From Candidatus Omnitrophota bacterium (GTDB lineage Bacteria > Omnitrophota > Gorgyraeia > VGKH01): 64,000 nucleotides of DNA. The notes under the pieces were generated by a model. That model did not search any database. It was given only the letters and a program-made list of their open reading frames with translations, and had not been told where the DNA came from. The position numbers and the translations under genes were made by a program. The stretch spans positions 346,850 through 410,849 of the forward strand of contig JAKLEP010000001.1 in NCBI GenBank assembly GCA_022703055.1, in the 5' to 3' direction. Below, one piece after another: positions 4,005-44,530 of this stretch (positions are counted from its first letter, which is position 1; each line of letters opens with the position of its first letter).

Positions 4005-4783
4005 AAGATCTTAAGAAAAATATAGGTTTACCGGTTAAGTTAGATGATAATTATCAATTAATTTTTGAGAATGGGTTGTCTAAGGTTTTGCCGGCAATAA
4101 GGACAATTGACGAGATGAGGGAAGTCCTCGTAGACAAAACCATAAGTTCGCCCAAAGAACTTTATTATATGTACCGGGATGTAGCTTTCGATAAAGACAG
4201 GCCGATGGAGAAGAAATACGAATTAAGATATGACATAACGGTTATAAGGCCTGATAAGCTGGGTGATGAGTTTATGAAGACCGCCGGTCACTATCATCCA
4301 GGAGATTATCCCGAGCTTTACGAAGTTGTCTACGGGACAGCGTGGTGTTTATTGCAAAAGCCTTCAAAAAAAGATTATAAAGTGATAGAGGATGTAATCT
4401 TAGTGAAAGCCCAGACTGGAGATAAGATCGTCTGCCTCCCCGGCTACGGCCATATTCTGATTAATCCTTCTAAAAACGAGCCATTGGTGACGTCAAACTG
4501 GGTAGGAACGAGGTTCAGTTCCGATTATTCTCTTTATAAAGAAGCAGAAGGCGCAGCATATTTCTACTCTGAGAAAAACGGCAAACTCAAAATAGAAAAG
4601 AATAATTTTTTTACTCAGGTGCCAAAAGATATAAAACAAATGGTTCCGAGCGCTAAAATTGAGAAATTCGGCCTGGAGAGAAATAAGCCTATTTACCCGA
4701 TTATAAACAACCCTGACAAATTAAGGTTTTTGAATTATCCCGTCGAGTTTGATTTTAGCGACGCATTCGTAACAAAAGCTTAA
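4001..4783 (+). CDS. Cupin-type (archaeal-type) glucose-6-phosphate isomerase
   Basis: 260 aa. The block DKLGDEFMKTAGHYHPGDYPELYEVVYG...LPGYGHILIN parallels the Pyrococcus cupin PGI metal site (T-x-GH-x-H...E...H), as recalled from memory. Confidence 0.65.
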   Translation: MKDLKKNIGLPVKLDDNYQLIFENGLSKVLPAIRTIDEMREVLVDKTISSPKELYYMYRDVAFDKDRPMEKKYELRYDITVIRPDKLGDEFMKTAGHYHPGDYPELYEVVYGTAWCLLQKPSKKDYKVIEDVILVKAQTGDKIVCLPGYGHILINPSKNEPLVTSNWVGTRFSSDYSLYKEAEGAAYFYSEKNGKLKIEKNNFFTQVPKDIKQMVPSAKIEKFGLERNKPIYPIINNPDKLRFLNYPVEFDFSDAFVTKA

Positions 4784-4787
4784 AATC

Positions 4788-5554
4788 ATGAAAGCGATAA
4801 TTTTAGCTGCTGGTTATGCCACTAGACTCTATCCTCTGACCGAAAATTTCCCCAAGCCGCTGATCGAAGTCAAAAAGAAGCCGATACTCACTTACATTGT
4901 TGAAAAGATAGAGCCTATAGCTGATTTAGACGAGGCTGTGATTGTGACCAACAGTAAATTCTATGATAATGTTTCCAAATGGGCCAAAGATTCTCAGAAG
5001 GACTTTAAAAACATAAAATTAAAGGTTTTTAACGACGGGACAAATTCTCCAGCCGATAGATTAGGCGCCATCGGTGACATAGAATTTGCCATAAAGAAAG
5101 ATGCTTTGGAAAAAGCAGATATTCTGGTAGTCGGCGGAGATAATTTGTTTGATTCCGATTTGCACGATTTTATCAGTTTTGCGAAAAGCAATTCACCCAG
5201 TGCGACGATAGGAGTTTTTGATATAAAAGATAAGAAACACGCCAACAAATACGGCGTTGTAGCCTTAGATAGAGATAAAAAGATTGCTTCGTTTGAGGAA
5301 AAACCCAAAATTGCCAAGTCTAGCTTGGTTGCAATGTGCCTTTATTATTTTCCTCGCGAGACTGTGGGTCTGATAAGCGAATATATAAAGAGTACGGAAA
5401 AAAGCGATACTACGGGCGGTTACATCAGCTGGCTTTGCGCAAAAAAAGCGGTTTACGGTTTTATATTTCAAGGCAAATGGGAAGACATAGGGAATATTCA
5501 TTCTTTATGTAAATTAGACCAACACTATTGTCAATTTATAAAGGAGGATAATGC

Positions 5555-5558
<4 letters not shown>
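4788..5558 (+). CDS. Sugar-1-phosphate nucleotidylyltransferase family protein
   Basis: 256 aa. N-terminal signature [25 protein letters not shown]. Substrate cannot be determined from sequence. Confidence 0.7.
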
Positions 5559-7977
<2,419 letters not shown>

Positions 7978-18457: not shown

Positions 18458-18976
18458 TTATTTGCAGGAATCTAGTTTATCGAGGACAAAGCGGGTGGGT
18501 CTTCGGATAAATTCAGCGCGGAATTTTAGATTTTCGATATTATAAAAATCCACAATAAGCCTGAAATTAGCGCTGGAAAGATGCGGCAGGATTCCTTCGG
18601 GCGTGCGGACAGTTCCTTCCTGGCCTTGATGGATGGCGGAAAAATTCAATTTGATTCTTTCGTTGGGCCTCAAGATTTCTACCGGTTCAAATTTCAAGGT
18701 AAAACGCATCATAAAGCCAAAATCCAAGATGTCCACATCGGTATCTTGGATGCTGATTTCTTTAGCCATCATAGTGCTTTCGTTTTTTATGAATAGACCC
18801 AAGTCTTTTAAGTCTAAATCAAGCATTAATTCTGGCACTAGGCGTTTATGGATTTCTTGGATAAGGGATTTCTTTAGCCTGCGAATCTGTAGCAATGCGA
18901 TTACAAGAATTGCCAGCGTAATAAAAATCAGCCAATCTTTAAATGAGATTCTTGATAATAGATCTAATATATTCAT
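18458..18976 (-). CDS. Hypothetical membrane-anchored protein
   Basis: 172 aa. Single N-terminal TM (WLIFITLAILVIALLQI). No recognisable domain. Confidence 0.5.
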   Translation of the reverse strand: MNILDLLSRISFKDWLIFITLAILVIALLQIRRLKKSLIQEIHKRLVPELMLDLDLKDLGLFIKNESTMMAKEISIQDTDVDILDFGFMMRFTLKFEPVEILRPNERIKLNFSAIHQGQEGTVRTPEGILPHLSSANFRLIVDFYNIENLKFRAEFIRRPTRFVLDKLDSCK

Positions 18977-19056
18977 AACTGGGTTCTATTATAGCATAAT
19001 TCTTGGATAACGTTATAATTTTTTAGTATAGGATACGGTGAGTAAATTGGAAGGTG

Positions 19057-19905
19057 TTAGCGCTCTAGTTCGCAATCTTTGGCATATTTAATGATTATGA
19101 CTCTATCAACCGGGTCCAGCTGGACAAACACAGCTCCGATTTCATAGCGTTTCTTGTTTTCAATTTCCTGTACGCGTACAACTTTCACCACCGAGGCTAT
19201 CGGCCTTGCTGATACACTTTTGGGAAGATCTATTTCAAAAGTAAGGTAGGAGTTTAGTGGCAGCTCATTAGCTGAATAAAAACACACGCCACCGGCGCTA
19301 ATATCCTTGGTTTCTTTCTTTACGTAAGTGTCTTGATGGGCAAAATGGACATCAAGGTTTGCCTTGAATCGGAAGAACCGTCTTCTTTCTAAACCCTTAT
19401 AAATTTTTACATCGATTATGTTCGGTTCGATGTCATTGCTTAGTTCTTCGGATATGCGTATTCCATAATATGTCTCAAGAGCATTTTTAATATCTGATAT
19501 TGTGGCGATAAAAACCTGGACTTCGCATCCAGTGGCTAATTTCACCGCCTGGAGAGCTTCGTAGTTTAAGGGATTGACCATGGCGATAGTGATAAGCGAG
19601 CCGATTTTATCTATCGGTATAAGGCAAAATTTCTCAGAGATAGATGCAGGAACCAAATTGATTATTTTTTTATCTATTGTGAAGCTGGAGATATCGATAT
19701 AAGGAAAGCCGTATTGTCTGCAGATACAGAGGACTATATCTTTTTCCGAAACATAGCCGTGTTTGACCAGATAGTCGCCGATAAAACCGCCGTATTGTTT
19801 CTGGTAGCCAAGAGCCTCTTTTAATAATTCTCTATTTATGAGTCCTTGTTCCAGAAGCAGCTCGCCGATTTTCTTCCTGGTAGATAACTTTGAATCTGTA
19901 ACCAT
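19057..19905 (-). CDS. MshEN/T2SSE_N domain + PilZ domain protein (predicted dual c-di-GMP receptor, no ATPase domain)
   Basis: Two tandem 24-residue MshEN-type motifs (KIGELLLEQGLINRELLKEALGYQ and FIGDYLVKHGYVSEKDIVLCICRQ) separated by the 5-residue spacer KQYGG. C-terminal PilZ motifs RRFFR and DISAGG. Start moved to ATG 19905 (SD AGAGG). The track's GTG at 19947 sits inside the leader hairpin. Confidence 0.8.
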   Translation of the reverse strand: MVTDSKLSTRKKIGELLLEQGLINRELLKEALGYQKQYGGFIGDYLVKHGYVSEKDIVLCICRQYGFPYIDISSFTIDKKIINLVPASISEKFCLIPIDKIGSLITIAMVNPLNYEALQAVKLATGCEVQVFIATISDIKNALETYYGIRISEELSNDIEPNIIDVKIYKGLERRRFFRFKANLDVHFAHQDTYVKKETKDISAGGVCFYSANELPLNSYLTFEIDLPKSVSARPIASVVKVVRVQEIENKKRYEIGAVFVQLDPVDRVIIIKYAKDCELER

Positions 19906-19937
19906 TTTGCTACCTCTATGAATTATATAATATAAAT

Positions 19938-19967
19938 GCCGAGCCACCTTTATTTCGGTAGCTCGGC
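19938..19967 (-). terminator. Candidate riboswitch expression-platform terminator hairpin
   Basis: Minus-strand GCCGAGCTACC-GAAATAAA-GGTGGCTCGGC forms an 11 bp stem including one G-U. It is followed by the A/U-rich ATTTATATTATATAATT, between the aptamer and the SD. Confidence 0.5.
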
Positions 19968-20000
19968 TGTCAAATTGGCTTTATGAGTTCTGCCCTTACG

Positions 20001-20103
20001 TTATCGGTGCGCCCGGCGATCGATTTCGGCCTTGCTCTTTTAAAGCCTTTAGACCCGTGGCTTTGCGTCTTCGTCTTTCGGCGAATTTGCCTTTTCGGAT
20101 AAG
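20001..20103 (-). promoter_or_regulatory. c-di-GMP-I (GEMM-I) riboswitch aptamer
   Basis: Minus-strand TTATCCG-AAAA-GGCAAA-TTCGCC-GAAA-GACGAA-GACGCAAAGCC-ACGGGTCTAAAGGC...GCCGGGCGCACCGATAA. It has the conserved GGCAAA, a GNRA-capped helix, GACGCAAAGCC, a CUAAA receptor-like bulge, and a closing P1 (TTATCCG/CCGATAA). Confidence 0.8.
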
Positions 20104-20212
20104 GGTTTATTCTTATTCCATTTAAAGTATATATCAAAAAGAGGATTTTTAAAGGTCTTGTACGCAGACTTCGGGAAGCGTTTTCTTGTGAAAATCTGCG
20201 ATATTTTATCCC

Positions 20213-24188: not shown

Positions 24189-25058
24189 ATGCAAATTCTG
24201 ATAAGTATATTTGTTTTTATTGTTGGAGCTTTTATCGGCAGCTTCTTGAATGTGTGTATTTACCGTATGCCTCGGGAGATGTCCATCAAAAAGCCTGCGA
24301 GGTCGTTCTGCCCGAATTGCAAAAAAACCATTCCCTGGTACGATAATATCCCGCTTGTGAGTTTCATACTTTTAAAGAGACACTGCCGTTTCTGTGGGGC
24401 AAAAATTTCCTGGAGATACCCACTAGTAGAGTTGATTACTGCGTTTTCATTTTTGATTTTATTAAAATATTTGGGTTTTGGCTGGCCGTTGTTTGTTTAC
24501 GCTATATTCATATCATTTTTGATTGTCGCGATTTTTACGGATTTGGATTTCAGGATTATTCCCGACGAGATAAGTGTTGGTGGGTTATTCACAGGGATAC
24601 TGCTTAGCGCGATTTTCCCTTTTATGCACGGGACGGCCGTTTATAAAATATCGGTTTTGCGCTCATTCTTAGGAATCCTTGTTGCCGGGGGAGTGCTTTA
24701 TTTATTTGCGGTTGTGGGTGATTTTTTGTTTTTTAAAGTCGGTGATTTTATCAGCCAGAAATTATTCAAGAAAGAAATATACCTGAAGCAAGAATTTGAG
24801 GAAGGCGAAGAACCGTCCACCATGGGCGGAGGAGATATCAAGCTTCTTGCGATGATCGGGGCTTTTATGGGATGGCAGCAGGCAATCCTGTCTTTATTCC
24901 TGGCATGTATTCTGGGCGGACTTATCGGTATAATCGTAAAGATAAAAACCAAGGGCAGCCTTATTCCTTTTGGTCCTTTTATTGCAATGGGAGCGATCAT
25001 AAGCTTCTTTTTCAGTAAACAGTTAATCGTCGGATTTTATTCGCTTTTTTATCTATAA
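24189..25058 (+). CDS. pilD: Prepilin peptidase (A24 family, type IV leader peptidase/N-methyltransferase)
   Basis: 289 aa. Zinc motif CPNC...CRFCG, DNIPLVSF, catalytic-Asp contexts (FTDLDFRIIPD, GGGDIKL). Polytopic. Confidence 0.85.
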   Translation: MQILISIFVFIVGAFIGSFLNVCIYRMPREMSIKKPARSFCPNCKKTIPWYDNIPLVSFILLKRHCRFCGAKISWRYPLVELITAFSFLILLKYLGFGWPLFVYAIFISFLIVAIFTDLDFRIIPDEISVGGLFTGILLSAIFPFMHGTAVYKISVLRSFLGILVAGGVLYLFAVVGDFLFFKVGDFISQKLFKKEIYLKQEFEEGEEPSTMGGGDIKLLAMIGAFMGWQQAILSLFLACILGGLIGIIVKIKTKGSLIPFGPFIAMGAIISFFFSKQLIVGFYSLFYL

Positions 25059-33061: not shown

Positions 33062-34970
33062 GGTCTTGGGCTGGATTTTTATGGCTCTGCCGATGAGTGT
33101 GTCTCTGTCTCTTGCCAAGGCTATCGGGACCGTCGGATACTACCTGGACTTTAAGCATAAAAGAGTAGTCTATGCCAATATCAAGACCGCATTCGGAAAC
33201 TCAAAAACTTTGCAGGAAATAAACGTCATAACCAAAAAGACTTTTCAGAATTTCTGCCAGCATATCGTCGAAGTGCTATGCCTGCCTAAGATTACACACG
33301 GTTATATCGAAAAATATGTTCGATTTGAAGATAAAAGTATAATCATGGATGCCATCAAGGAAAACAAGGGCCTGCTTGCCTGCAGTATGCATTTTGGCAG
33401 TTGGGAATTATCGTTTATTTTGTGCGACAGGCTTGGCCCGCCGTTTAAAATCATCGCCAGGGAACATGAAAAATATTCCAAGACCGACAAGTTGCTCAAC
33501 TCCTATCGTCAGATGCGTCCGGAAAGTGTTTTGTATCGCGGCGAAAGCCCCAAAGAAATGATCAAGGTATTGCAGAACAAAGAAATATTAGGCCTGGTTC
33601 TGGATCAGGGCGGCAAGAGCGGACAATTGACCGAATTTTTCGGGCAAAGCGCCTCCATGCCCACAGGCGCTTTACGATTAGCTTTAAAATTTGATGTCCC
33701 GATAGTAATGGTATTTATAATCAGGGAGCGCGGGCCATATCATAAGATTATTTTGAGGCGGTTAGAATTGATTAAGACTCAAGATGCCGAGAGGGATATT
33801 GAGCTAAATCTTAATAAGATTATGCGTATGGGCGAAGACATAATTCGGCAGCACCCCGAACAGTATATGTGGTTTTACAAAGTATGGAAATACTCCGATC
33901 AAAAGAAAATTGTTATTTTAAACGATGGAAAAATCGGCCAGCTAAGGCAAAGCCAGGCAGCGGCAGGCATTTTATCGGCAGAGCTAGCAAAAAACAATTT
34001 TAAAGCTTCCATAGAAATAATGGATGTCAGATTCAGGAATAATTTTTCCAAAGCCATGATATCTTTGTGTTCTGTCCCGGCGGCGAAACGCCATTGCATG
34101 GGTTGCCTGTGGTGCCTGGAGAAGTTTCTGGAAAAATCATCCTACGAGAATTTAGCCAGGATGAAAGCCGATTTTATCATCTCCAGCGGCTCAAGCCTGG
34201 CTAATGTGAATTATATTTTATCCAATGATAGCCTGGCAAAGAGTGTGTCGATTTTACGGCCGAATCTGCTGGGCACAAATAGATTTGACCTGGTGGTCAT
34301 GCCCAGGCACGATAATCCGCCGCAAAGAGACAATGTAGTTATAACAGACGGCTCATTAAATTTAATCAATAAAGATTATTTAAAAAAGCAGTCTGAAAAG
34401 ATTGCTTTGCGCTATCCTAATCTTAGCCAAGATAAAGCCAGGACAATAGGCGTCCTCTTGGGAGGAGATACAAAAAATTATAAGATATCTATTGAGGCGG
34501 TTAAAATCCTGATTTCAGAATTAAAAGATATTTCGCAAATATTAGACTTACAGATTTTATTGACCACATCAAGAAGGACTCCGAATAGCGTAGAGAACCT
34601 TATCATAGAGAGCCTGGGAAGTTTGCCAAAATGCAAGTTGCTGATAATCGCCAATGAAAACAATATTCCCGAGGCGGTGGGCGGAATATTGGGATTGTCC
34701 GATATAGTTATAGTAAGCGATGATAGCATTTCCATGGTTTCCGAGGCGGCTAGTTCCGGAAAATATGTAATTGTTGTTCAAACCGCCAAAGAATCCAGCT
34801 CAAGGAAGCACAGAAGATTTTTACAATCATTAAGCAGCCAAGAATATATTTTCCTGGTAAAACCGGATAAAATATCAGATACTATTAAACAAATCTTTAA
34901 CAATCAACCTAAAGTTAAAAAGCTGGCTGATAATGAAGCTTTGGCCAGTGCAATCGGAAAGATATTATGA
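33015..34970 (+). CDS. Fusion of a LpxL/HtrB-type lipid A late acyltransferase and an ELM1/GtrOC1-like putative glycosyltransferase domain
   Basis: 651 aa. The N-terminal ~295 aa has the acyltransferase HX4-type context (CSMHFGSWE). The C-terminal ~350 aa begins KIVILNDGKIGQLRQSQAAAGIL, typical of bacterial ELM1-like proteins. Confidence 0.6.
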   Translation: MKKHFLKDYCLFATAKVLGWIFMALPMSVSLSLAKAIGTVGYYLDFKHKRVVYANIKTAFGNSKTLQEINVITKKTFQNFCQHIVEVLCLPKITHGYIEKYVRFEDKSIIMDAIKENKGLLACSMHFGSWELSFILCDRLGPPFKIIAREHEKYSKTDKLLNSYRQMRPESVLYRGESPKEMIKVLQNKEILGLVLDQGGKSGQLTEFFGQSASMPTGALRLALKFDVPIVMVFIIRERGPYHKIILRRLELIKTQDAERDIELNLNKIMRMGEDIIRQHPEQYMWFYKVWKYSDQKKIVILNDGKIGQLRQSQAAAGILSAELAKNNFKASIEIMDVRFRNNFSKAMISLCSVPAAKRHCMGCLWCLEKFLEKSSYENLARMKADFIISSGSSLANVNYILSNDSLAKSVSILRPNLLGTNRFDLVVMPRHDNPPQRDNVVITDGSLNLINKDYLKKQSEKIALRYPNLSQDKARTIGVLLGGDTKNYKISIEAVKILISELKDISQILDLQILLTTSRRTPNSVENLIIESLGSLPKCKLLIIANENNIPEAVGGILGLSDIVIVSDDSISMVSEAASSGKYVIVVQTAKESSSRKHRRFLQSLSSQEYIFLVKPDKISDTIKQIFNNQPKVKKLADNEALASAIGKIL

Positions 34971-35257
34971 ACCCCGCCCTTCCTAAAGAATGGTATTATG
35001 TGTATCTACTTGCTAGCGGTAAGACATCTTGGATTTATATAGGCTGTACCAATGATTTAAAAAATAGATTGAAAGAGCATAGCGAAGGGAAGGTTTTTAC
35101 AACTAGAAAGATGCTACCTGTAGAATTAATATATTTCGAGGGATATAGGTCTAAGGACCATGCATATAAAAGAGAGAAAAATCTTAAAGCTTATGGCAGC
35201 GGTTTAGCAAAACTGAAATCCCGGCTCGGAATAGAAACGAAAGGAAGGGCGGGGTGA
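34967..35257 (+). CDS. Small GIY-YIG nuclease family protein (YhbQ/COG2827-like), copy 1
   Basis: 96 aa. Motif YYVYLL...WIYIGCTNDLKNRLKEH...R. ATG overlaps the upstream stop (ATGA). Its stop overlaps the downstream GTG start. Confidence 0.8.
   Translation: MNPALPKEWYYVYLLASGKTSWIYIGCTNDLKNRLKEHSEGKVFTTRKMLPVELIYFEGYRSKDHAYKREKNLKAYGSGLAKLKSRLGIETKGRAG
34972..35254 (+). mobile_element. Inverted-repeat-bounded GIY-YIG unit (CCCCGCCCTTCCT ... AGGAAGGGCGGGG)
   Basis: A 13 bp perfect inverted repeat brackets essentially the whole GIY-YIG ORF. The same CCCCGCCCT/AGGGCGGGG arms occur as ORF-less hairpins at 41489, 42067 and 51299. Confidence 0.5.
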
Positions 35258-41488: not shown

Positions 41489-41620
41489 CCCCGCCCTTTC
41501 TTTCGACAAAAACTCTGTTCTAGAAAGGGCGGGGTTTAATTCGCAGACGCCCCGATAAATCGGGGCTACGGCTTACGTCGTTGACACTCCGTAAGTCGTC
41601 TGCTCATTAAAGGAGGCAAC
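41489..41620 (+). repeat. Composite structured intergenic element, copy A (empty GC-rich hairpin + three-stem module + SD)
   Basis: 13 bp stem CCCCGCCCTTTCT/AGAAAGGGCGGGG with a 20 nt loop, then TTTAATTC. P1 is GCAGACG/CGTCTGC, P2 is CCCCGA-TAAA-TCGGGG, P3 is GGCTTACG/CGTAAGTC. Ends TCATTAAAGGAGG-N5-ATG. Confidence 0.7.
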
Positions 41621-42064
41621 ATGAAAAAGATTCTATCAGTGATATTGGCGCTGAGTTTAGTATTGGTATCCTCGGTATTTGCCAATGAAGAGAAGTGCCA
41701 TGTAGCGCAAAAGACGGATGAGGCGCAAGTAGTAAATACGCAAGAATCCAGCCGTAATCTGCAAGCAGGGAATCCGTCTAACCCGGATGAGGTTAGCCAG
41801 GGATTGATTCGCAAATACGAAGGTGCAAATTCACAAAAGCCAACAAAACCCCGCCAAGCCATTAATAAGTCGGTAAATAGTGCAAAGGTTAAGCCTGGAC
41901 GGCAGATACCTGATTCCGGGGACCAGACCACCGACAGCGAAAAAAACGCGGTAAGGATTAATGATTTGACAAATAAAAAGCAGACGGCTGAAGGTTTGCT
42001 TTTAAACGAAATGAACAAAACTCACGAAACCCAAAGCTCGGTAGTAAATAACATAAAACCGTAG
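41621..42064 (+). CDS. Hypothetical secreted, low-complexity (Q/N/S/K-rich) protein
   Basis: 147 aa. Clear signal peptide MKKILSVILALSLVLVSSVFA. SD AAAGGAGG is supplied by element copy A. Confidence 0.55.
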   Translation: MKKILSVILALSLVLVSSVFANEEKCHVAQKTDEAQVVNTQESSRNLQAGNPSNPDEVSQGLIRKYEGANSQKPTKPRQAINKSVNSAKVKPGRQIPDSGDQTTDSEKNAVRINDLTNKKQTAEGLLLNEMNKTHETQSSVVNNIKP

Positions 42065-42066
42065 AA

Positions 42067-42170
42067 CCCAGCCCTTTCTTTCGACAAAAATTCTGTTCTA
42101 GAAAGGGCGGGGTTAATTCGCGCAAACAATTTACGTCAGCTACGCTTCCGTAAATTGTGCGCTCATTAAT
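42067..42170 (+). repeat. Composite structured intergenic element, copy B (degenerate, no SD)
   Basis: Hairpin CCCAGCCCTTTCT/AGAAAGGGCGGGG with a loop nearly identical to copy A. Then TTAATTC, a long hairpin GCGCA(AA)CAATTTACG/CGTAAATTGTGCGC, and TCATTAAT. Confidence 0.65.
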
Positions 42171-42220
42171 CGGGAACCGGTCCTGAGGAAGGAAAATTTC
42201 TAAAATATCGGGGGATAATA

Positions 42221-42835
42221 ATGTATTACACAAAAATAACAATATTTGAAAATAATAGAAGGATACAACAGCTGTATGCATTTATCGATCTTATTGGAAG
42301 GTACTTTCAAAATACAAGACATGATGGCTTTAGCTTTGAGCTTATTGAGAATGAAGAAGCGCTGACAATAAGAATGGAAATTGATCGAATACTTACTCGA
42401 ATATATAGAATTGTAATAGCCTCTGGTGTTAATCCGGTAATACAATATACGCCTCCTCCTGCAATTGGTGGATATATACGAGATATAGATGTAATTCATA
42501 ATATTTTTAATTTAAGCAGGTTTGAAATTAGACCAACAATTTTATTAGATTATATCTACAGGGCAATTGGCATATACGAGGATAATAGCAAAAGTGCGTT
42601 GATTAGAACTTTTAATCCGTTTTTCTGGTTAGGATTATTATTAGATTATATTGTTAGTTTACCTTTTAGATTTATGGGCATAATAGGATTTAATCAGAAC
42701 AAAGTTGAGTCTTCATTTATTGGTAAGATTGTTAAAGGTATATTATATTTGATTACAGTATTTGCTTCATTTTTGACGATTCTACACTTACTTGGTTTAC
42801 TAGACAATTTTAAGAATTATTTCAGTAGTAAATAA
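42221..42835 (+). CDS. Hypothetical protein with a cytoplasmic N-terminal domain and two C-terminal TM helices
   Basis: 204 aa. TM candidates FFWLGLLLDYIVSLPFRFMGIIGF and ILYLITVFASFLTILHLLGLL. Very AT-rich coding sequence. No recognised family. Confidence 0.6.
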   Translation: MYYTKITIFENNRRIQQLYAFIDLIGRYFQNTRHDGFSFELIENEEALTIRMEIDRILTRIYRIVIASGVNPVIQYTPPPAIGGYIRDIDVIHNIFNLSRFEIRPTILLDYIYRAIGIYEDNSKSALIRTFNPFFWLGLLLDYIVSLPFRFMGIIGFNQNKVESSFIGKIVKGILYLITVFASFLTILHLLGLLDNFKNYFSSK

Positions 42836-42941
42836 ATTTTTAGGTAAGGAAAATTCCAGAGTCTAATAATTTAATAAAGATTCCCGAATAAAATGGGGAA
42901 CGCCCTCGATAACTCATAAAGAAGGAAAGGAGCCAATCTTG

Positions 42942-44441
42942 ATGATACAAAAAGTCGATGATTATTTGGATGCATTCGACCTTGGAGCATCAACTGCTGA
43001 GAAAGATACGCTTTTGGAGATCGCAAAAATTGAGACTCAGGAATTTTATGATTTATATCTGCATGATAGGATAGATATAGTTCGAGGCACGAAAGGATCA
43101 GGAAAGACAGCTTTATATAGGTTGTTTTTTTTCTTGAGAAATTTATTAATCGATAAAAATAAACTATATTGCATATTCGGAATTGAGGCAACTGGTGATC
43201 CCCTTTTTAAGCTCTTCCAAGATGAATTTAAGTTATATTCAGAGGTTGAATTTGCAAACTTTTGGGGCATTTATTTTATAGTTTTAATATACAAGTTAAT
43301 TTTTAATGCCGATAAGTTACGAAATCAGATCGGCAATGAAGATATAAATAAAATCGATGAGACATTATCAAGAATGGGATTAAAAATTCATAAAGATGGC
43401 TTTATCTTTAAAGACATACAGTGTTCAATTTTAGATTTGATGAGAAAAACAAAAATGAAATTAGGTGTTGAAACTAAAATAGACCAGATATCAGGTTTGC
43501 CAATTTCATTTACGCCCGCAATTGAATTAGAGCCCGGTACGATAGATGAAGTTCATAATAAACCGATTTATCTTATTGATTTTAAGAATATGATCATATC
43601 GATTCTCGAAAAACATAACATAAAAATTTGGATAATGTTAGATCGGCTTGATGAAGTTTTCCCCCATCGTAGCGAAGTAGAAAAAAATGGTTTAAAAGGA
43701 CTGCTGCGAGCATCGTATAATTTTTCTTCTCATTCGTTCCTAAGAATAAAAATATTTTTGAGAGACGATATATTCGAATATTTAGCCGCAGATGGTTTTA
43801 CTGCTTTAACACATATAACCGATAGATGCTCAGCTTCAATGTCTTGGTCAAAAGATGATATTTTATATTTAATTGTCAAAAGAATAGCCGCTATTCCTTA
43901 TTTGCGCTATGAATATGGAATAGATTCTGATAAAATTGATAAAGATAAGTCATATCGTAGCGAGGTGTTTTATAAAATTTTCCCTCCTTGCGTCGGAAAA
44001 ATCGCCACCTTTGATTGGTTATTTGATTCTTGTTCTGATGGAAATGATATAGTCACTCCGAGAGATATAATAGATTTTTTCAGATGCGCAAAGGCTTTTC
44101 AATTTAAGAAATTTAAACAAACTGGGCAACAACAAGAATATCTTATTGAAGAAGATATTCTTAAAAAATCGCTTGAAGCACTTTCTAAGCAGAAAAAAAA
44201 CATGTTTCTGTTTGCAGAATTTCCTCATCTTAAACAACATATATTAAAATTTGAAGGAGGATGTAGTGAGCACAACGCTGATTCATTAGAAAAACTTTTG
44301 GGAAGCGATTGGATTAAAATAGTAGATGAGCTCAAGTCAATCGGGTTTTTGAAACATGTTCCAAAAAGTGGTGCGTATAAGATTCCTATAATCTGGAGGC
44401 AGGGGTTAAGTATTAAAAGAAGAAAAGCTTTTGAAAAATAA
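42942..44441 (+). CDS. Uncharacterised P-loop NTPase (~499 aa)
   Basis: Walker A GTKGSGKT (nt 43086-43109). Walker B-like IWIMLDRLDE (nt 43626-43655). SD AAGGAAAGGAG. ATG 42942 is preferred over TTG 42939. Family not recognised. Confidence 0.7.
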   Translation: MIQKVDDYLDAFDLGASTAEKDTLLEIAKIETQEFYDLYLHDRIDIVRGTKGSGKTALYRLFFFLRNLLIDKNKLYCIFGIEATGDPLFKLFQDEFKLYSEVEFANFWGIYFIVLIYKLIFNADKLRNQIGNEDINKIDETLSRMGLKIHKDGFIFKDIQCSILDLMRKTKMKLGVETKIDQISGLPISFTPAIELEPGTIDEVHNKPIYLIDFKNMIISILEKHNIKIWIMLDRLDEVFPHRSEVEKNGLKGLLRASYNFSSHSFLRIKIFLRDDIFEYLAADGFTALTHITDRCSASMSWSKDDILYLIVKRIAAIPYLRYEYGIDSDKIDKDKSYRSEVFYKIFPPCVGKIATFDWLFDSCSDGNDIVTPRDIIDFFRCAKAFQFKKFKQTGQQQEYLIEEDILKKSLEALSKQKKNMFLFAEFPHLKQHILKFEGGCSEHNADSLEKLLGSDWIKIVDELKSIGFLKHVPKSGAYKIPIIWRQGLSIKRRKAFEK

Positions 44442-44530
44442 AGAGCAAGAAATCAAAAAACGTAAGGACTAAAGAATATTTGTTTTAACTCGTAGCTAAA
44501 ACTACATTAACCATAAATATACACGAATTA

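Follow-up and report, generated by a model that had tools for sequence, protein, structure and literature searches.

A short MshEN-PilZ protein preceded by a cyclic di-GMP-I-class riboswitch in Candidatus Omnitrophota

In a 64,000-nt stretch of DNA from a Candidatus Omnitrophota bacterium (GenBank assembly GCA_022703055.1, contig JAKLEP010000001.1, positions 346,850 to 410,849 of the forward strand; hereafter, the window), a minus-strand gene at 19057 to 19905 codes for a 282-residue protein that combines an MshEN domain with a canonical PilZ domain and has no ATPase domain, and the 5' leader of this gene contains a riboswitch aptamer of the cyclic di-GMP (c-di-GMP)-I class that overlaps an intrinsic terminator. 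Among protein domains dedicated to c-di-GMP reception, none are more widespread than PilZ and MshEN. On balance, we interpret the locus as a small unit that responds to c-di-GMP, in which the riboswitch would induce synthesis of a c-di-GMP-binding adaptor that may be directed to a pilus or secretion machine. The signal c-di-GMP would, thus, probably also control whether its own receptor is made. A preliminary description of this gene, based on the DNA and its open reading frames (ORFs), had recognized the two domains and overlooked the riboswitch, which is the strongest functional clue at the locus.

RESULTS

An MshEN domain without ATPase is fused to a canonical PilZ domain

The gene and the domains that it encodes map to the window as follows.

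19057 to 19905, minus strand: MshEN-PilZ coding sequence, ATG start, 282 residues.
19913 to 19916, minus strand: ribosome-binding site GAGG, 7 nt 5' of the ATG, as read from the sequence.
19714 to 19872, minus strand: MshEN_N 53-residue c-di-GMP motif (residues 12 to 64; NF053729), made up of motif I, a 5-residue linker, and motif II.
19456 to 19713, minus strand: MshEN_C, the T2SSE_N1-type alpha/beta subdomain (residues 65 to 150; PF05157).
19084 to 19389, minus strand: PilZ domain (residues 173 to 274; PF07238), with the RRxxxR codons at 19369 to 19386 and the DxSxxG codons at 19288 to 19305.

We kept the ATG at 19905 as the start codon, as in the preliminary description, because the homologues share this ATG and the alternative GTG at 19947 is located within the stem of the terminator described below. 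The identical protein is on record on seven contigs, including a 500-kb Joint Genome Institute (JGI) metagenome contig and the metagenome-assembled genome GCA_028686955.1.

In profile searches, as had been suggested for this gene, MshEN and PilZ models both scored above their curated cut-offs. NCBIfam NF053729 ("c-di-GMP_motif, MshE-related") matched residues 12 to 64 with 55 bits (cut-off, 38), Pfam MshEN (PF05157) matched residues 65 to 150 with E=1.5e-16 (60.6 bits; cut-off, 23.1), and Pfam PilZ (PF07238) matched residues 173 to 274 with E=1.3e-12 (48.4 bits; cut-off, 22.5). As described earlier, an ATPase is absent: the Pfam and NCBIfam profile scans of the 282-residue protein gave no match to the T2SSE ATPase domain (PF00437) or other T2SSE/ATPase families, the PilB model TIGR02538 aligned at positions 1 to 146 only (73.9 bits), and the protein stops at residue 282. 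By sequence, the N-termini of PilB proteins are closest to the MshEN half (E=6.6e-29 for the Geobacter PilB 5ZFR N-terminus), which also matched the C-terminus of NfrB, a c-di-GMP-activated glycosyltransferase, with 58.5 bits.

Two tandem 24-residue MshEN motifs separated by five residues had been reported for the N-terminus. Both motifs are present, and the spacer, KQYGG, spans residues 36 to 40. Motif I (KIGELLLEQGLINRELLKEALGYQ, residues 12 to 35) fits the MshEN pattern, RLGxx(L/V/I)(L/V/I)xxG(L/V/I)(L/V/I)xxxxLxxxLxxQ, with Lys in place of Arg and Ile in place of Leu, but motif II (FIGDYLVKHGYVSEKDIVLCICRQ, residues 41 to 64) fits everywhere except at the first position, which is F41 and not [RK]. 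Glycines G14, G21, G43, and G50 as well as glutamines Q35 and Q64 are all kept. In the alignment with Vibrio cholerae MshE (5HTL), which has a constant offset of 3, R9, G11, G18, and Q32 correspond to K12, G14, G21, and Q35 in the first half, and R38, G40, G47, and Q61 correspond to F41, G43, G50, and Q64 in the second half. L196 of PilF GSPII-B aligns with F41, and GSPII-B has been crystallized with c-di-GMP (8PDK); binding can, therefore, be reconciled with a hydrophobic residue here. PilF GSPII-C has, by our reading of the alignment, a Glu at the position of the motif II Gly, and it has been reported to bind c-di-GMP (PMC12002112). Because the four glycines and both glutamines are kept, we judge that the MshEN half probably binds c-di-GMP in the clade of the window protein, with less certainty than the PilZ half.

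In the PilZ half, the RRxxxR motif comprises R174, R175, and R179, and the DxSxxG motif comprises D201, S203, and G206; the previously noted RRFFR (residues 175 to 179) and DISAGG (residues 201 to 206) are, thus, both present. The RRxxxR arm is located in the flexible interdomain linker. Type II PilZ proteins of Xanthomonas are without RxxxR and DxSxxG, and the window PilZ domain, which has both, is not a member of this type. Based on its motifs, the PilZ half very probably binds c-di-GMP.

Structure prediction had also been suggested, and an AlphaFold2 (AF2) model was built from ten sequences, giving a mean predicted local distance difference test (pLDDT) value of 78. The MshEN_N part is modeled as a four-helix bundle (helices 13 to 19, 25 to 38, 42 to 48, and 54 to 65), which is followed by the alpha/beta subdomain. 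Residues 154 to 177 form a disordered linker, and the PilZ domain is modeled as a beta-barrel with strands within residues 185 to 262 and a C-terminal helix at 265 to 281, in agreement with the six-stranded barrel and terminal helix of PilZ domains. Using Foldseek, the MshEN half matched MshE with c-di-GMP bound (5HTL) with a template modeling (TM) score of 0.84 (target normalized) and a root mean square deviation of 2.3 Å over 139 columns, and further matches were the PilF GSPII domains and the Xanthomonas citri PilB N-domain. The PF05157 and 5HTL matches bear out the T2SSE_N-type fold proposed to follow the motifs. The PilZ half matched the c-di-GMP receptors MotI/DgrA, Alg44, MrkH, and YcgR. 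Profiles, motif residues, predicted structure, and fold matches all agree that the architecture, i.e., MshEN and a canonical PilZ domain without ATPase, is real. The earlier statement that the ATPase had been replaced by a second sensor is correct in that the fusion is without ATPase; as a description it is not the most apt one, since MshEN is already known on many non-ATPase domains and since the protein is a short form within a family of mostly longer proteins (see below).

MshEN-PilZ proteins form a family with short and long forms

Using a word-indexed protein search, we identified nine full-length relatives, one of which is named Candidatus Omnitrophota. A chance architecture is unlikely, as both domains are kept in full-length relatives at 56 to 95% identity. 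An exhaustive HMMER search gave 137 cluster representatives with E<=1e-30. With the nine word-search relatives added, the whole module is present in one aligned stretch in 74 proteins, or about 74 of the best 150 cluster representatives at 50% identity. In a Pfam scan of 67 family proteins, MshEN was found in all 67 and PilZ in 65, and the only other matches were coiled-coil noise. An explanation of the window gene as a truncated PilB pseudogene is rejected based on the conservation of the family and the nearly invariant PilZ residues.

The family comprises short forms, with an N-terminal extension of 30 residues or fewer (n=23), and long forms, with an extension of at least 60 residues (n=49). 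Among the latter, 43 of 49 begin with a hydrophobic helix, and the remainder of the extension consists to ~48% of Glu, Lys, Gln, and Leu, i.e., is coiled-coil-like. Judged by these features, the usual form of the family is a predicted membrane helix, a predicted coiled coil, MshEN, and PilZ, and the window protein is a short, predicted soluble form. The members for which an organism is named (P0006, P0013, P0016, P0024, and L013; P and L denote our handles for proteins and loci) are all Omnitrophota.

Across 75 aligned modules, the PilZ motifs are highly conserved (R175, 74/75; R179, 75/75; D or N at 201, 73/75; S203, 67/75; and G206, 73/75). Motif I of MshEN is also well kept, with K or R at position 12 in 65, G14 in 61, and Q35 in 61 of the 75 modules.

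At L006 and L069, a gene trio consisting of a DUF885 gene, an unannotated gene of ~460 codons, and a methyltransferase gene adjoins the short form P0004 and the long form P0016, respectively. The shared flank also holds a gene for a patatin, either cNMP-binding or plain. That P0004 and P0016 adjoin the same trio suggests that members of the two forms can be orthologous by position.

One apparent full-length tblastn match outside Omnitrophota (L019, Fretibacterium, 4567 to 6426) turned out to be a PilB-like ATPase with tandem MshEN domains instead and was discarded. In a scan of GTDB genomes with the family alignment, the matches were mostly to MshEN of the PilB type.

The 5' leader contains a conserved c-di-GMP-I-class aptamer

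The elements of the leader are listed in the order of transcription.

20109 to 20137, minus strand: putative promoter-like site TTGATA-17 nt-AAGAAT from a consensus scan, ending 9 nt before the aptamer.
19953 to 20100, minus strand: c-di-GMP-I-class aptamer of 148 nt, with a GAAA tetraloop on P2 and a conserved 80-nt insertion in P3.
19938 to 19967, minus strand: intrinsic terminator stem-loop of 11 bp, 8 of which are GC, with dG -23.9 kcal/mol and a U-rich tail at ~19925 to 19937.

An Rfam scan of the 370-nt region upstream of the gene identified the aptamer with RF03167 (63.2 bits; gathering score, 59; E=4.7e-14 to 1.4e-12; full model), and a second family of clan CL00126 also scored above its threshold. 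Aptamers were found at the equivalent position before relatives of the gene in five further loci, with the following best matches (the gathering score of RF01051 is 35).

L074 leader: before P0002, 81% identity to the window protein; RF03167, 62.5 bits.
L006 leader: before P0004, 64% identity to the window protein; RF03167, 59.8 bits.
L075 leader: before P0005, 60% identity to the window protein; RF01051, 73.5 bits.
L005 leader: before P0006, 58% identity to the window protein; RF03167, 59.9 bits.
L072 leader: before P0165, about 33% identity to the window protein; RF01051, 69.2 bits.

Upstream of the long forms at L069 and L071, the short form P0013 (L070), and L013, no aptamer was found at E<=0.5. 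The aptamer does not belong to the divergent gene for an AsmA-like protein on the other side of the window leader, as it is on the wrong strand for that gene and is kept at MshEN-PilZ loci without this neighbor. A weak match to a group I intron that spans the start of the gene (E=0.71, 15.5 bits) is noise.

The columns that contact the ligand read G/A/C in the window and in the five other leaders, i.e., G before GCAAA, A in ACGC-A-AAGC, and C in UA-C-CG. We take these columns to be the probable equivalents of G20, A47, and C92 of Vc2. The roles of the ligand-contact nucleotides in Vc2 have been described (PMC4744006, PMC5888326). The column that defines the GGC variant (ACGC-G-AAGC) has an A in the window and in all leaders of the relatives, as in the parent family RF01051. 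Because of this A and of the G and C at the equivalents of G20 and C92, we interpret the aptamer as a c-di-GMP sensor of the parent type rather than a GGC variant, an assignment made from the nucleotides at these columns. Covariation is seen in P2, where six pairs are changed on both sides, based on six sequences only. At the base of the P3 extension, the helix varies in sequence but is paired in every one of the six leaders.

The insertion at the tip of P3 measures 67 to 87 nt across the six leaders (19968 to 20050 in the window, minus strand) and has a highly conserved core, GAYCGCCGGGCGUACCGAUAACCUAAGGGCAGAA, which resembles the 3' half of the aptamer itself, GAYAGCCGAGCUACCGAAA. RNAalifold favors a fold in which the 5' strand of P3 is paired with this internal copy, which may serve as an alternative pairing partner or a decoy. 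Searching metagenomes for the clade-specific aptamer core yielded one short contig (L073; 1.1 kb), in which the downstream gene runs off the end. It contains a related c-di-GMP-I aptamer at 73 to 183 on the minus strand (RF01051, 68.9 bits) with its own terminator and with an A at the equivalent of G20 (AAAG-A-GCAAA), as in variants of the c-AMP-GMP type.

The consensus scan did not give more promoter-like sites than expected by chance; in L074 and L075, a comparable -35/-10 pair can be seen by eye at an equal distance from the aptamer.

The aptamer and the terminator are mutually exclusive

The 5' arm of the terminator is made up of the 3' strand of P3, the unpaired nucleotides A and C of the ligand pocket, and the 3' strand of P1, so that terminator and aptamer overlap by 15 nt (19953 to 19967). 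Equivalent hairpins are present in all six leaders (the window, L005, L006, L072, L074, and L075). Because this overlap makes the two structures mutually exclusive, binding of c-di-GMP to the aptamer should favor read-through, i.e., the riboswitch is predicted to be an ON switch. The same logic has been described for Cdi-2-4 upstream of pilA1 in Clostridioides difficile (PMC6366702).

Genomic surroundings and a possible target

As had been reported, the MshEN-PilZ gene is one of only two minus-strand genes in the window, based on gene calls as well as the ORF list. The second one is located directly downstream.

18458 to 18976, minus strand: gene for a 172-residue single-pass membrane protein with a beta-sandwich domain, after a gap of 80 nt.

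From its position, this gene is probably cotranscribed with the MshEN-PilZ gene. In the AF2 model of the 172-residue protein (pLDDT, 85), residues 12 to 46 form a helix, and there are 11 strands; it had no significant match among Protein Data Bank (PDB) folds and no match in Pfam. The family is tiny, with six database matches. A 44%-identical copy is present at the same position in L005, and the gene is absent after the orthologues P0004 and P0005. No similarity was seen between the 172-residue protein and the N-terminal extensions of the long forms.

A gene for a prepilin peptidase (24189 to 25058) is located 4.3 kb from the MshEN-PilZ gene, and no gene for a diguanylate cyclase or a pilus ATPase was found in the window. 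A methyltransferase neighbor at several loci was dropped as a functional link, as it is not orthologous beyond L005. Of the other loci, L069 carries a REC-GGDEF gene at 4 kb upstream and L072 a REC gene that stands alone; the rest offer no hint.

The preliminary description had proposed to look for partner ATPases without an MshEN domain of their own. Such an ATPase was not found at the loci, but one relative adjoins a PilB with a degenerate MshEN motif. At L071, the gene for the long form P0164 is divergent from an operon for PilZ, PilZ, a PilB/GspE ATPase, pseudopilins, PilC, and a pilin. This PilB scored 18 bits with NF053729 (cut-off, 38), compared to 39 bits for P0164 and 55 bits for the window protein, and it has D-I-L, I, E, and A at the positions of K-I-G, G43, G50, and Q64, respectively. 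L071 hints at how c-di-GMP may control pili when PilB's own sensor is degenerate. The two small PilZ genes at the start of the operon (L071, 1 to 7814) are one canonical gene and one without RxxxR. Because the MshEN half is PilB-like and because of this locus, our best guess for the target is a type IV pilus or a type II secretion-like machine, and this is the weakest step of the proposal.

Four further observations concern the window at large. Strand bias is extreme, with all called genes on the plus strand except the two at 18458 to 19905, and GC skew is positive throughout 1 to 64000. The segment at 41500 to 44500, within a cluster of lipopolysaccharide (LPS) genes, has a low GC content (0.32 versus about 0.43 elsewhere) and contains three ORFs of 147, 204, and 499 codons with no Pfam match on record. 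tRNA genes are located at 1 to 76 (cut by the window edge) and at 112 to 184. A gene for a 96-residue GIY-YIG nuclease-domain protein (34967 to 35257) lies between genes for lipid A/LPS glycosyltransferases.

DISCUSSION

In the mechanism that we favor, c-di-GMP would bind the leader aptamer, formation of the terminator would be blocked, and transcription would enter the gene. The product would be a soluble 282-residue protein with a complete PilB-type MshEN domain without ATPase and a canonical PilZ domain. Once c-di-GMP occupies the linker/PilZ site, and possibly MshEN as well, the presentation of the MshEN docking domain toward a partner would change; this partner would be a type IV pilus or a machine similar to type II secretion systems.

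Several observations weigh against parts of this mechanism, and those on the MshEN half bear on how many of its domains are sensors. The predicted TM (pTM) score of the AF2 model is 0.49, and the mutual placement of the MshEN and PilZ domains in it is, therefore, unreliable. F41, which opens motif II, is outside [RK] and also outside the relaxed first-position set [RKPN] of Wang et al. 2016 (PMC5013675). Across the 75 modules, motif II begins with Arg in only 2, and the equivalent of G40 is Gly in 13 and Thr in 36; the G40I substitution abolishes c-di-GMP binding by V. cholerae MshEN (PMC5013675). Moreover, PilF GSPII-A, which is close in sequence to the window MshEN half and has a near-consensus motif, does not bind even after the consensus is restored (PMC12002112). 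Together with the nearly invariant PilZ motifs, these observations would fit a protein in which the PilZ domain is the single sensor besides the riboswitch, while MshEN is a nonbinding module for docking or oligomerization. We consider this the less likely reading. The clade of the window protein is among the minority that keep the Gly equivalent to G40, and it has all four glycines and both glutamines; the NF053729 score of the window protein is well above the cut-off, and even the long forms score above it, with 39 to 44 bits. Motif I is well kept across the family, and PilF GSPII-B and GSPII-C bind c-di-GMP despite the Leu at the F41 position and the Glu at the motif II Gly, respectively. 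On the RNA side, the U-tract of the window terminator, AUUUAUAUUAUAU, is weak, but those of the five other leaders are stronger, e.g., UUUUUAUUUUUU in L006. The best Rfam model for the window aptamer is not the parent RF01051 but the GGC variant RF03167, which also scores best for L005, L006, and L074. Weinberg and coworkers reportedly proposed in 2017 that GGC-type variants recognize other signaling molecules, in which case expression of the receptor would be under the control of a signal other than c-di-GMP. We regard such a leader as highly improbable, given the A at the GGC-defining column in the window and its relatives, the best matches of the leaders of P0005 and P0165 to RF01051, and the second clan family above its gathering score on the window aptamer, with margins of RF03167 of only 1 to 4 bits.

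The target is where a different answer has the best prospects. Pilus genes are next to the MshEN-PilZ gene in only one (L071) of the distinct loci examined, and the neighbors in the window are housekeeping genes, including ilv/leu, aro, and LPS/Kdo/Lpt genes, both of which speak against a pilus or secretion machine. The PilB-like MshEN domain could merely be a reused module, as in NfrB, the C-terminus of which matches it, and MshEN is known in many non-ATPase contexts (PMC5013675). The protein might then act on envelope or polysaccharide synthesis, in line with the AsmA/DUF748-like gene divergent from it and the LPS-rich region of the window, or on the 172-residue membrane protein, which is a conserved neighbor in part of the clade. 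We see a target other than pili as a serious possibility, although on the whole we do not expect it: by sequence, the MshEN half matches PilB proteins best, one relative adjoins a pilus operon with a degenerate-motif PilB, and neither the AsmA-like nor the 172-residue neighbor is conserved across the family. A bolder version of the adaptor proposal, which we offer as speculation that is unlikely to hold in full, is that Omnitrophota detached the sensing head of PilB and fused it to PilZ, giving a trans regulator for ATPases with a decayed MshEN domain and, thereby, an independent analogue of PilZ-FimX. In the short-form clade, c-di-GMP would then be read at three points, namely, the RNA, an MshEN site of high affinity, and a PilZ site of lower affinity, in a multithreshold feed-forward cascade.

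The MshEN-PilZ fusion represents a natural system for combining two sites of different expected affinities in one effector, and the c-di-GMP riboswitch ahead of the gene would add a third level of sensing. The family also gives initial access to the c-di-GMP output pathways of the uncultured phylum Omnitrophota, and binding assays should be easy with the short soluble protein and the 148-nt aptamer.

The two domains and the riboswitch class are known, and an MshEN domain without ATPase is in itself not new; their combination and the family appear to be undescribed, and the regulatory arrangement is unusual. "MshEN-PilZ" did not occur in the literature searched, and the reviews and censuses checked do not describe it. 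Databases annotate both domains automatically, and the NCBI name of the members is "PilZ domain-containing protein." Described non-ATPase fusions of MshEN include those to REC, HD-GYP, CheA, CheX, cyclase, kinase, and glycosyltransferase (NfrB) domains (PMC5013675). The main text of that study does not mention PilZ among the fusion partners; in the supplement, "PilZ" occurs three times, two of these passages being column headers of Supplementary Table 5.

Compared to MshE and PilB (5HTL, 5ZFR, 5TSG, and PilF GSPII), the window protein shares the 53-residue layout of two motifs with a 5-residue linker and the helix bundle with the alpha/beta subdomain. Unlike these proteins, it has no ATPase, a Phe opens motif II, and PilZ follows MshEN. 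As in NfrB and other non-ATPase MshEN proteins, MshEN serves as a mobile c-di-GMP module in a protein other than a secretion ATPase; unlike in those proteins, the partner domain is itself a c-di-GMP receptor domain. With YcgR, MotI/DgrA, PlzD/VCA0042, and MrkH, the window protein has in common a canonical C-terminal PilZ domain with RRxxxR in the interdomain linker. In such two-domain PilZ receptors, ligand bound at the linker reorients the N-terminal domain. The window protein's N-terminal domain differs from theirs in that it is MshEN and not of the PilZN/YcgR_N type, and it may provide a site for a second molecule of ligand.

An MshEN fold and a PilZ fold are also brought together in the PilB-PilZ-FimX system of Xanthomonas and Pseudomonas (7LKM/7LKO), to which the arrangement at L071 is comparable; in Foldseek, the MshEN half of our model matched the PilB N-domain of this complex. 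PilB of Xanthomonas, which has a degenerate MshEN motif, relies on accessory PilZ and FimX (PMC8389850). That system consists of separate proteins with a nonbinding type II PilZ and with FimX as the sensor, whereas in the window protein the domains are fused and PilZ is of the canonical kind; at the loci examined, nothing resembling FimX was seen. The riboswitch belongs to the same class I (GEMM-I) clan as Vc2, and its logic resembles that of C. difficile Cdi-2-4 at pilA1, in which prevention of the terminator implies induction by c-di-GMP. Unlike Cdi-2-4, which is of class II, the leader described here has a class I aptamer with an insertion at the tip of P3, and the gene that it is predicted to regulate itself encodes a putative c-di-GMP receptor.

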